From an uncultured Candidatus Saccharibacteria bacterium (GTDB taxonomy: Bacteria > Patescibacteriota > Minisyncoccia > Phycocordibacterales > Phycocordibacteraceae), in NCBI GenBank assembly GCA_964507275.1, contig CAZDPG010000001.1, positions 276,577 to 340,576 of the forward strand: DNA of 64,000 bases, read 5' to 3'. The notes under the pieces are model-generated. The model was not told where the DNA came from and did no database searches. It worked only from the letters and a program-made list of their open reading frames with translations. Of this stretch, positions 1,891 through 4,725 are shown piece after piece (position 1 is the stretch's first letter; each line of letters starts with the position of its first letter). The translations under genes were made by a program, and so were the position numbers.

Positions 1891-4725
1891 CTATACCACG
1901 AAGTTTATGACTTTCCCTGGTACATACACGACCCGTTTCTCCTCCTTTCCTCCTAGGACAGCCACCACCGTGGGAATGGCTCGCGCCTCCGCAGATACTA
2001 CTTCCTCGGGAGTATCAGCAGCAAGCGAGAGGGTTCCGCGCCGCTTGCCATTCACCTGTACCGTCACCTCTACCGTACTTGAGGCAAGCAGACTCGCGTC
2101 GTACATAGGCCACACCTGCGCATGGACACTCCCCTCCCCTCCGATCTCCTCCCAAAGATGCTCGGCAAGATGCGGGGCGAATGGTGCAAGCAGGATGCAG
2201 AGAGACGCGAGTGCTGATTTCGGTAGCGACGAGACAGCTTCGAGTTCATTCAGAAGAATCATGAGCGCCGCAACCCCTGTATTAAATTTGAATCGATCAC
2301 CGTCTTCAGTAATCTTCAGATTCGCGCGGGCGAATGCCTGATCGAGCCCTTCCGGCATGACCGCGCTCTCGTTCGCACGATCAAAGAGTCGCGCGATGCG
2401 CTCAAGAAACTTTCGCATCGAAGCGACACCATCAATATTCCACGGATAACTTCCCGGCTCATTATACGGACCGATGAAAGCGAGATAGACGCGCACGGCA
2501 TCCGCGCCATACTCCTGCACGAAATCGTCTGGGTTCACGACGTTCCCTTTCGACTTACTCATCTTCTGTCCATCGGGGCCCATGATGAGCCCCCGATTGA
2601 AACGCTCAACGAACGGCTCATCGACCGGTACGAGCGCAAGATCGTAGAGCGCCTGTGTAAAGAATCGCGCATACAGGAGGTGCATCGTCGTGTGTTCGCT
2701 TCCGCCTGAATAACGATTAACGGGCATCCATTTCTTCATCAGTGCCGCATCCGAGAACTGGTGGGCACCCTTGGGGTCGAGATAGCGGAGGAAATACCAT
2801 GAAGAATCAACGAACGTGTCGAGTGTGTCGTATTCCGGCGTCCATCCCTCCCCAAAGATTCGAGTCACGCGTTCTTTCAACTCCTGCGAGGATGCGAGTG
2901 GAGCTTCACCCGTCGGAGTGAAATCAACATCGGTCGGGAGAAGCCAGGGCAGATGTTCGGCCGGAATGACATGCGGATGCCCGTCAGGATCGTAGACGAT
3001 TGGGATCGGGCAGCCCCAATAACGCTGGCGGGAGACGAGCCAATCGCGCAGACGATACTGCGTCGCCTTCTCGCCACCCGCGAATGCGATGATGTCCCAT
3101 TTCGCTTCTGCGCTCTGCCGACCAGTAAATTCGCCCGAGTCGATAAGAACTCCGTCATTCGTATACGCGCCATCTAATCCTGAGAGTCTCGTGAGCCAGA
3201 TATCCATCTCCGCGTGAGTCATTGAAGTGGCTGTTAGGTCTTTCATATCCGCCCATACGACCTCATGTGCCTCATCCTCATCCTTTGCGAGAGGAAGGCA
3301 CTCATCATCAGCAAGATCGAATGTAACAAGCGAGGTATAGGAGACGCGATTCTCATCCTTATGGGCTGCGAAATACTCAGCACGCACCTGCCCTCCCCAC
3401 ACCTTGCCGTTTGTGAGGTTCTGATATCCAGTTTCCTCGGCGACTTCACGACGGGCCGCCTCGATAAGTGTCTCCCCCGATTCAACGCCTCCCATCGGGA
3501 ACGTCGTCCATGCGTGCTTTTTCCATTTCAATATCAAGACTTTCCCGTCTTTTGGATTGCGGACAATGACATGCACATTTCGTCGTTCGACTGCCTTCTT
3601 CCCCTCTACCGGAGGATTTCTCTTATCGACACGTACCGGAACGACAACTTCCTTGATGGATAATTGCATTTTCTGTGCAAATGCAAAATCACGGTCGTCG
3701 TGTGCTGGGACGGCCATGACTGCGCCCGTACCATACGACGCGAGCACATAATCCGCGACATACACTGGTATCTCCTCTTTCGTTGCTGGGTTGATGGCAG
3801 TGACGCCCTCAAGTCTGACGCCGGTCTTCTCTTTATTCTCGCTACGCTCGCGTTCGGTCTTCTTCGCGGTCGCCACGACATACGCCGCGACGGCGTCCCC
3901 ATTTGAGATTATGTCAGCGAGCTTCGTGACGAGCTTGTGTTCAGGCGCAAGCACGACATAGGTCGCGCCAAAGACCGTATCGGGACGGGTCGTGAAGATT
4001 TTGATCGACTCGTCAGACCCTACGAGAGCGAAGTATAGGTACGCGCCCTCTGACTTACCGATCCATGCGCGCTGCGCTTCTTTTATTTCCGTGCGCCACG
4101 GAAGCTTATCGAGACCGTTCAAGAGACGCTCGGCGTAATCAGTAATCTTCAGAAACCACTGTGTGAGATTTTTCTCAACGACTTCAGTACCACACCGCTC
4201 GCAGCAACCATCCTGCACCTGCTCGTTCGCAAGTACGGTCTGGTCCTTAGGACACCACTTCACGGCAGCAAGGCGATGCTCAGCAAGCTTGTGCTCGAAA
4301 AGCTTCGTGAAGAGCCACTGTGTCCACTGGTAATACGAAGGGTCGCAGGCAATCACCTCCTTGCTCCAGTCGAAGGAAGCACCCATGCTCTTCAGTTGGG
4401 TGCGCATACGCTCGATATTCTTATACGTCCATTCTTTCGGATCGACACCATGCTTGATTGCCGCATTCTCCGCTGGCAGACCGAAGGCATCGAAACCTAT
4501 AGGGAAAAGCACGTTCTCCCCGCGAAGCCGGAGCATGCGCGCGTAGATGTCAGTTACCGCGAAGGCATACCAATGCCCGGTGTGCAGGTCGCCCGAAGGA
4601 TACGGGAATTCGACAAGGAGGTAATACGGTTTCTTCGCATCGTCCGAAAGGTCAGTACGATACAGATCGAGTTCAGCCCATTTCTCCTGAGCTTTCTTCT
4701 CTACGTCACGATGATCGTACGCCAT
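1891..4725 (-). CDS. leuS: Leucyl-tRNA synthetase with an inserted NUDIX hydrolase domain (aa ~375-500)
   Basis: Class I HIGH-type motif [11 protein letters not shown] and KMSKS motif KMSKSKGN are present. The editing-domain end [17 protein letters not shown] is recognisable. The catalytic core resumes at [21 protein letters not shown]. The stretch in between contains a canonical Nudix box, [23 protein letters not shown]. Confidence 0.95.
   Translation of the reverse strand: [944 protein letters not shown]

Follow-up and report, generated by a model that had tools for sequence, protein, structure and literature searches.

We describe here a leucyl-tRNA synthetase (LeuRS) that carries a Nudix hydrolase domain, in frame, within its editing domain. 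The corresponding gene, leuS, lies in a 64,000-nucleotide stretch of DNA (hereafter the window) covering positions 276,577 to 340,576 of contig CAZDPG010000001.1 (GenBank GCA_964507275.1), from a genome labelled as an uncultured Candidatus Saccharibacteria bacterium and placed by GTDB in the Phycocordibacteraceae (Patescibacteriota; Minisyncoccia; Phycocordibacterales). Coordinates are those of the window, and all parts of leuS are on its minus strand. The gene occupies 1891..4725 and appears in the open reading frame (ORF) listing as a complete, uninterrupted frame of 944 amino acids followed by a TAG stop codon. A tblastn search of the window with the protein returned a single match, making this the sole leuS in the 64 kb. 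The product scores 889.1 bits against the bacterial LeuRS model TIGR00396 (leuS_bact; cut-off 548.4), in two stretches that are split by the insert, and gives a collinear, full-length match of 676 bits to the LeuRS of Thermus thermophilus (1h3n).

The protein begins with the N-terminal half of the catalytic (Rossmann) domain (residues 1-218; 4072..4725), which was delimited by PF00133 (tRNA-synt_1; residues 12-218) and the alignment with 1h3n. The same alignment locates the HIGH motif, present as HTGH (residues 48-51; 4573..4584), and the KMSKS motif (residues 721-725; 2551..2565). The first part of the CP1 editing domain follows at residues 219-364 (3634..4071), where PF13603 matches residues 219-367 with profile positions 1-146 of 185; this part holds the threonine-rich editing motif TTRPDT (residues 245-250; 3976..3993) and the editing-site motif GTG...AHDDRD (3688..3732). 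Beyond the Nudix insert (residues 365-517; 3175..3633) come the last part of CP1 and the return linker (residues 518-560; 3046..3174), which align with T. thermophilus residues 373-417, and the second catalytic half (residues 561-798; 2332..3045). The protein ends in an anticodon-binding helical domain (residues 799-910; PF08264, Anticodon_1) and a C-terminal domain (residues 911-944), which are together encoded at 1894..2331 and were likewise placed with the help of 1h3n. Residues D343 and D346 align with D344 and D347 of T. thermophilus, the latter being equivalent to D345 of Escherichia coli. Across 114 homologs, H48, G50, H51, T245, T246, R247, T250, D343, D346, K721, M722, S723 and K724 are invariant, and the editing and synthetic motifs are unchanged whether the insert is present or absent. 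Judged by these residues, both the synthetic and the editing sites of the host LeuRS are intact, and the enzyme looks fully functional.

The window enzyme shares the HIGH, KMSKS and CP1 threonine-rich and aspartate motifs, as well as the anticodon-binding and C-terminal domains, with other bacterial LeuRS (TIGR00396; T. thermophilus 1H3N/2BYT, E. coli 4AQ7). Relative to the T. thermophilus enzyme, it adds the 153-residue Nudix domain in the loop equivalent to residues 362-373, and it is without the leucine-specific domain (T. thermophilus ~581-636, ~56 residues), which E. coli LeuRS also has. In the alignment, query residue 717 pairs with T. thermophilus 580 and query residue 721 already with 637, around window positions 2551..2575. 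Relatives from the Paceibacteria all lack the leucine-specific domain, with or without the insert; this domain is not universal and is no defining feature of the bacterial LeuRS family.

The boundaries of the insert were set by alignments to relatives of 789 amino acids and to T. thermophilus LeuRS. Query residues 3-361 correspond to T. thermophilus 4-362 and query residues 517-717 to 373-580, and against the close 789-residue relatives the junction reads '...VVES|STLPYTG...'. The insert thus defined is ~153 residues long, and not ~125 as in the original prediction. Neither the 789-residue relatives nor the LeuRS of T. thermophilus or E. coli has it, in agreement with the earlier statement that E. 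coli-type LeuRS lacks it. The Pfam NUDIX profile (PF00293) matches residues 381-501 (3223..3585) at 63.5 bits (gathering score 21.1; E-value 2.7e-17), and the interval originally reported (3228..3588, residues ~380-499) coincides with this match. The 23-residue Nudix box, which includes the catalytic helix, lies at residues 412-434 (3424..3492) and fits the pattern GX5EX7REUXEEXGU at all positions, as expected of the textbook box that had been claimed. Column frequencies pointed to further conserved residues downstream of the box, namely HKDENR (455-460), E483 and W491 (3253..3363).

The original prediction put the insert after the editing domain, before the catalytic core resumes. It lies instead in a surface loop within CP1, and the editing-domain profile continues after it: PF13603 is interrupted at profile position ~146 of 185, and the ~40 remaining positions continue beyond the insert. 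The same profile runs uninterrupted to position 182-183 in insert-less relatives, and fragments of relatives show NUDIX followed by PF13603 positions 124-185.

A full-length AlphaFold2 model, built on an alignment of 114 sequences, reached a mean predicted local distance difference test (pLDDT) of 86.7 and a predicted template modelling score (pTM) of 0.76, with pLDDT values of ~89-96 across the insert; modelled alone, the insert reached a pLDDT of 94.2 and a pTM of 0.87. The full-length model shows the secondary-structure pattern of the alpha/beta/alpha Nudix fold, with strands at residues 378-389, 396-401, 411-413, 437-453, 458-471 and 487-492 of the insert, and helices at 420-432 (carrying the box), 481-486 and 507-514. 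Foldseek returned 556 chains from the PDB at E<=0.001, and the 50 listed were all Nudix-family proteins. The top fold neighbours (TM 0.55-0.68, 16-24% identity) were NUDT15, the Enterococcus faecalis MutT/nudix protein 2azw, RppH, NudI, MTH1 and hydrolases of diadenosine tetra- and hexaphosphate (Ap4A/Ap6A). As modelled, the insert is a discrete Nudix module that is not near any characterised Nudix enzyme. The in-frame Nudix domain inside LeuRS had been predicted together with the means of checking it, and it is borne out by the NUDIX profile hidden Markov model (HMM) match, by the alignments that set its limits at residues ~365-517, by the discrete, high-confidence module in the AlphaFold models, and by a survey of related genomes, in which the same insertion is widespread.

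We attempted to assign the insert to a Nudix subfamily with NCBIfam models, PDB sequence and profile searches, and Foldseek, and obtained only mixed, sub-threshold neighbours. None of the NCBIfam Nudix subfamily models came near its cut-off: RppH (PRK00714 equivalogs) was best at 29.8 bits against a cut-off of 139, and MutT (TIGR00586) gave 20.9 bits against 97.9. Since no curated subfamily threshold was reached, the substrate cannot be named from sequence. In the scheme attributed to Dunn and co-workers in 1999, the subgroup of ApnA (diadenosine polyphosphate) hydrolases is reportedly marked by an aromatic residue (Tyr) 16-18 positions after the box, and the ADP-ribose pyrophosphatase subgroup is said to be marked by a proline ~15-16 residues after it. 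The insert has Y451 and F452 at 17-18 residues past Y434, and these two positions are mostly aromatic pairs (YF, FY, YY, FF) in the homolog segments listed, with neither column reaching 60% of one residue; its sequence similarity to the Ap4A hydrolases 3i7u and 1f3y is weak (E ~1e-6). Positions 449 and 450, where the proline of ADP-ribose pyrophosphatases would fall, are A and E. The top sequence match of the insert was T. thermophilus Ndx4, yet only at E 1e-5 to 2e-7. The single-domain Nudix enzymes of the RppH, Ap4A-hydrolase and MutT-NUDT15-MTH1 types share the fold and the complete box with the insert and are its best fold neighbours and best, weak, sequence matches; the clade of the insert differs from them in being only 16-24% identical, in having motifs of its own and in being mostly embedded in synthetases.

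The insertion is common among relatives of the window protein. A search with the full protein found PF00293 in 101 of the best 120 protein clusters, a share that is inflated because the insert itself raises the search score. Insert-bearing clusters are full-length at ~935-975 amino acids and come from NCBI, JGI, ENA and Logan. The named ones are labelled Candidatus Paceibacterota, Minisyncoccia, Parcubacteria or Patescibacteria group, and NCBI usually calls the protein just 'class I tRNA ligase family protein'. One cluster, P0016, is 99% identical to the window LeuRS and is labelled Candidatus Paceibacterota (phylum Minisyncoccota in the NCBI taxonomy). We also surveyed one GTDB genome per species and found 307 stretches coding for relatives of residues 300-560. 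We examined the best 80 of these 307 loci, and all span the insert, which is therefore present in at least 80 species genomes; the labels among them include Kaiser-, Taylor-, Yonath-, Wildermuth-, Yanofsky- and Moranbacteria. Of the 80 loci, 77 keep the frame open for at least 900 amino acids and 76 have a strict Nudix box.

A chimeric assembly or a mis-called frame could in principle create a false fusion of this kind, and some related contigs do have leuS broken into short ORFs (2-10 of them in L001, L002 and L003). Neighbouring genes on these contigs are split too, as are the transpeptidase and Mur ligase genes in L002, and such broken neighbours point to assembly indel errors and not to gene fission. 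The window itself has one continuous frame of 944 amino acids, and the same architecture occurs in ~100 independent protein clusters and in the 80 species-representative genomes. An artefact has a negligible probability in our estimation and is refuted for practical purposes. Several loci in the species survey (L017, L055, L067, L072, L076-L078 and L080) combine an insert-bearing leuS of Paceibacteria type with Thermodesulfobacteriota, Gammaproteobacteria, Fimivivens or Saccharibacteria labels, and many species loci labelled 'uncultured Candidatus Saccharibacteria' likewise carry a Paceibacteria-type leuS with the insert. These odd taxon labels are probably automated mislabels or reflect bin contamination.

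The insert is not found in all close relatives. We identified 18 that are without it, scattered on the tree of the LeuRS body such that 12 parsimony changes are needed. One of them, P0039, is the closest neighbour of the window LeuRS (distance 0.141). The locus of the insert-less leuS genes is also that of the window gene and comprises YchF, small genes, leuS, a Sigma70_r4/HARE-HTH protein, DUF8128, YceG and MnmA. This shared synteny indicates that the insert is a presence/absence polymorphism of an orthologous gene, and it rules out, together with the single leuS in the window, a second and specialised leuS paralog. The loop at the insertion site varies from 0 to 45 residues in length even among insert-less relatives. 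Some insert-less relatives retain 13-43 additional residues in this loop, among which no Nudix remnant was detected, so it is tree parsimony alone that bears on the direction of change (loss or gain). The pattern of presence and absence shows that the insert is dispensable and evolutionarily labile, and we infer that LeuRS function does not depend on it.

Residue frequencies in 96 insert-bearing homologs show that G412, E427, E431, K456, E483 and W491 are invariant, while E430 is conserved in 95, N459 in 91 and R460 in 86. The motifs specific to this insert family are W401, W406, HKxxNR, E483 and W491. Over long distances the insert diverges more than the body of the enzyme: mean identity to the query is 42% in the insert, but 62% in the C-terminal part and 73-82% in the catalytic and CP1 parts on either side of it. 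The ratio of non-synonymous to synonymous substitution rates (dN/dS), taken from species pairs with unsaturated dS, is 0.03-0.09 for the insert and 0.02-0.07 for the catalytic core. The insert is under purifying selection as strong as that on the synthetase, and is not drifting.

One residue pair of the box, E418/R426 (window 3448..3474), departs from the canonical sequence in 35 of the 96 homologs. The two positions co-vary (E-R in 65, Q-A in 12, and M, L or another residue with K in 19) and the glutamates of REx2EE are fixed. Such departures could be expected of a non-catalytic Nudix fold that binds a nucleotide (Ap4A, ADP-ribose or a ppGpp-like molecule), RNA or protein, and has a sensory or regulatory role or offers tRNA an additional binding surface, perhaps compensating for the missing leucine-specific domain. 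The Nudix clan is reported to have non-enzymatic members (PMC5389931), and the leucine-specific domain is indeed absent. However, three metal-ligand glutamates are invariant or nearly so in the 96 sequences, the box of the window protein is perfect, and the correlated change at E418/R426 is what would be expected of a maintained structural contact and not of decay. The 789-residue insert-less relatives are also without the leucine-specific domain, so there is no pattern of compensation. We consider a non-catalytic role improbable.

The same Nudix clade occurs at other sites and in other proteins. A phmmer search with the 155-residue insert against 1.84 billion representatives gave 665 matches at E<=1e-3, of which 157 were at E<=1e-10. 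Among the closest library representatives, which were mapped, 115 of 159 domain copies are embedded in LeuRS. Their insertion sites include site B, which is the site in the window, and site A, near the start of CP1, both within CP1, and site C in the catalytic domain, ahead of the conserved DTxDTF motif. Tandem pairs and triples of Nudix copies are also found in LeuRS (P0133, P0138). The copies cluster by position across proteins and not within one protein, from which it follows that the multi-copy layouts are old and their copies paralogous; recent intragenic duplication as the source of the multi-copy forms is ruled out by this grouping.

Related LeuRS proteins carry other inserted domains, including Ser_hydrolase (PF06821; one or two copies), HAD_2 (PF13419) and, in P0186, Ham1/ITPase (PF01725; 197 bits). 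These hydrolase domains are inserted at up to four sites in related CPR bacteria, namely in P0186, P0142, P0212, P0242, P0253, P0175, P0061 and P0119, and inserts of ~140-270 amino acids without a Pfam match were seen in P0186 (617-776), P0191 (593-732) and P0196 (~699-969). Inserted hydrolases are not restricted to LeuRS. An 1184-residue, IleRS-like class I synthetase with a DUF5915 C-terminus (L086:6094-9648) has His_Phos_1 inserted at residues 523-675 (107 bits), and its neighbours are Nudix genes, an ArgRS gene, dUTPase and thymidylate kinase. The class II synthetase ProRS carries the same Nudix clade between its anticodon-binding and C-terminal domains (P0257). Five Nudix-bearing ProRS clusters (P0257 and P0279-P0282) fall among ProRS proteins of ~485 amino acids labelled Nanoarchaeota/Woesearchaeota, labels (DPANN) that belong to their closest insert-less relatives. 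One of the five, P0280, is encoded at L090:5001-6932 with a tRNA_bind (PF01588) gene immediately upstream.

These observations also bear on whether the domain is a neutral or selfish passenger, a mobile module, prone to insertion, that settles wherever the loops of large essential proteins tolerate it and persists although the host gains nothing. The use of several sites, the tandem and triple copies, the patchy presence, the unrelated domains in the same loops and the variable site-B loop (0-45 amino acids in insert-less relatives) are all compatible with such a passenger. Against it stand the dN/dS of 0.03-0.09 and the invariant catalytic residues, as well as the finding that copies sharing a position in different proteins are orthologs and not recent duplicates. 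The GC content of the insert (0.517) is close to that of its flanks (~0.55), with no marked difference. We rejected an intein or self-splicing insertion, as the Pfam scan of the 944-residue protein gave no Hint or endonuclease match and the insert is a complete Nudix fold. A passenger without benefit is very improbable on this evidence.

Free-standing members of the clade also exist. We found ~34 proteins of 150-200 amino acids with the clade motifs, which were seen in P0148, P0167, P0168 and P0170. The first of these, P0148 (163 amino acids, 44% identical to the insert), is encoded on a 53,150-base contig from JGI sample 3300071358, and its stop codon lies 2 nt before the start of an insert-bearing leuS; the two genes are either partners in an operon or an N-terminal fusion broken by a frameshift. 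P0170 has an ArgRS gene on one side and an IleRS-like gene on the other, and dUTPase, thymidylate kinase and a further three Nudix genes belong to its cluster. P0167 is directly downstream of Fpg/MutM, and P0178 adjoins another Nudix gene. The window has a separate free-standing Nudix gene at 48152..48625 (plus strand), as originally noted, with a MutT-like box and a PF00293 score of 52.3 bits. This gene is of an unrelated Nudix subfamily and was rejected as a donor or paralog of the insert, as it gave no significant BLASTP match to the insert and no match to the insert-family HMM. We also considered and rejected a role in anti-phage defence: PADLOC returned one marginal 23-bit match to an uncharacterised model, and none for the free-standing homologs.

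The conserved metal-binding glutamates and the strong purifying selection suggest that the Nudix insert is most likely an active, Mg2+-dependent pyrophosphohydrolase. As close relatives with leuS at the same locus do without the insert, it is unlikely to be part of aminoacylation or amino-acid editing. We propose that the insert would serve as a 'house-cleaning' enzyme that works in trans on some small molecule of nucleotide type, while LeuRS, being always expressed, would carry it in a genome of reduced size. Candidate substrates would be dinucleoside polyphosphates (ApnN) such as Ap4A, or damaged or non-canonical purine nucleoside triphosphates (NTPs) in a nucleotide pool obtained by salvage. 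The domains and genes that accompany the clade (ITPase, HAD, esterase, further Nudix copies, Fpg and dUTPase) make up a classic 'house-cleaning' set, and NTP sanitisers are found among its fold neighbours, as are ApnA and RNA pyrophosphohydrolases. Aminoacyl-adenylates are acyl-phosphate anhydrides and not nucleoside-diphosphate-X compounds, so that clean-up of non-cognate adenylates is chemically the least likely of the roles proposed earlier, the others being hydrolysis of Ap4A or Ap3A and action on NAD- or CoA-capped RNA. Ap4A and other ApnN are known side products of synthetases and are degraded by Nudix enzymes, RppH and aq_158 among them (PMC7705103, PMC10148737). Nucleotide house-cleaning of ApnN or of damaged or non-canonical purine NTPs, with LeuRS as the carrier, is the reading that we favour, and we would put its chances at about even.

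Several points weigh against this reading. The profile and fold neighbours of the insert are mixed and include ADP-ribose pyrophosphatase, the mRNA-decapping enzyme AvrM14, Ap4A hydrolases, NudB and MutT-like proteins, and the substrate is a guess. The replacement of the E418/R426 pair in 35 of the 96 homologs could alter or abolish activity in those proteins. A pure carrier model also leaves unexplained why the clade prefers LeuRS (115 of 159 copies, at three or more sites). This preference for synthetases keeps alive a coupled function, such as ApnN clearance at source or action on tRNA or RNA ends. The Nudix domain and the HAD, serine-hydrolase and Ham1 modules may then be functionally coupled to the synthetase, which would make LeuRS and ProRS multi-activity quality-control enzymes of a kind not recognised before, a possibility that we rate as rather unlikely. 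Coupling could take two forms: destruction of ApnN alarmones or cap precursors at source, or nucleotide-level editing or repair of the acceptor or 5' end of the bound tRNA (e.g. toxin-modified CCA).

More specifically, the insert could act as an RNA-end enzyme that removes 5' pyrophosphate or Np4A- or NAD-type caps, as RppH and NudC do, or that repairs blocked tRNA 3' ends together with the HAD and esterase domains (e.g. after toxin addition of pyrophosphate). LeuRS would then have a second quality control, at the level of nucleotides. The CCA end is bound by CP1, which contains both site A and site B, and the clade has a strong association with tRNA synthetases from both classes. The best curated matches, weak as they are, were to the RNA pyrophosphohydrolases RppH and YtkD; RppH structures are among the top fold neighbours, and the profile match to the mRNA-decapping Nudix enzyme AvrM14 spans nearly the whole domain. 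The HAD phosphatase and serine hydrolase domains that are co-inserted in some relatives would also fit such a role. However, none of these similarities comes anywhere near a family threshold, and small-molecule Nudix enzymes match at least as well. Sites C and D, like the one in ProRS, are outside editing domains, the co-inserted Ham1/ITPase is an enzyme of free nucleotides, and the insert is repeatedly missing in close relatives. Action on RNA ends appears unlikely to us, and house-cleaning by a LeuRS-borne enzyme remains our preferred interpretation.

Precedents exist for enzymes of related composition. The curated NCBIfam model NF040702 ('ileS_w_GNAT') describes IleRS with an N-acetyltransferase, a class I synthetase with an extra enzymatic domain, although both the synthetase and the added enzyme differ from those described here. 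Class I synthetases belong to the same HIGH nucleotidyltransferase superfamily as NadM. The NadM-Nudix proteins (NMN adenylyltransferase/Nudix; NCBIfam PRK05379 models), to which the insert has a weak match, join an adenylyl-transferring enzyme of the HIGH superfamily to a Nudix domain that hydrolyses a related nucleotide. They are end-to-end fusions with a known ADP-ribose/NAD substrate logic, whereas the Nudix domain of LeuRS is an internal insertion in an editing domain. The NadM-Nudix fusion has been described for phages (PMC7824862).

The original prediction knew of no described LeuRS with a Nudix insertion, and we likewise found no description of such an insertion in LeuRS or any other synthetase in the literature searched, which did not cover subscription journals. 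A large review of the Nudix clan makes no mention of tRNA, synthetase or ligase. The architecture itself is nevertheless abundant in public sequence databases and visible in precomputed Pfam annotations. Both parts belong to well-known families, and it is their combination that is unusual.

Other features of the window were noted in passing. Two adjacent large ORFs at 37973..40363 (796 amino acids) and 40370..43129 (919 amino acids), both on the minus strand, gave no Pfam match at E<=1e-5. A DnaX-like protein of 480 amino acids (52643..54085, minus strand) matches DNA_pol3_delta2 in two stretches and has an AAA region from residue ~147-178, which suggests an N-terminal extension or an insertion. 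A cluster of tRNA genes at 19048..19417 (minus strand) comprises Ala-CGC, Pro-GGG, Pro-CGG and Val-CAC, and further tRNA genes are located at 27387 (Ala-TGC) and 52540 (Gln-TTG).

Few enzymes have been studied as thoroughly as the aminoacyl-tRNA synthetases, whose known accessory domains in Bacteria serve mostly for tRNA binding or amino-acid editing. The finding of an unrelated and apparently active nucleotide hydrolase inside the editing domain of an essential synthetase, in one of the largest groups of uncultured bacteria, is of interest in this context. The insert also explains why NCBI downgrades these genes to 'class I tRNA ligase family protein'. If the hydrolase is coupled to the chemistry of the synthetase, through Ap4A turnover or RNA-end repair, it would represent a new layer of translational quality control. 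If it is merely carried, ultra-small symbionts would be packing house-cleaning enzymes into essential proteins, and the CP1 loops would be natural permissive sites for enzyme-in-enzyme engineering.

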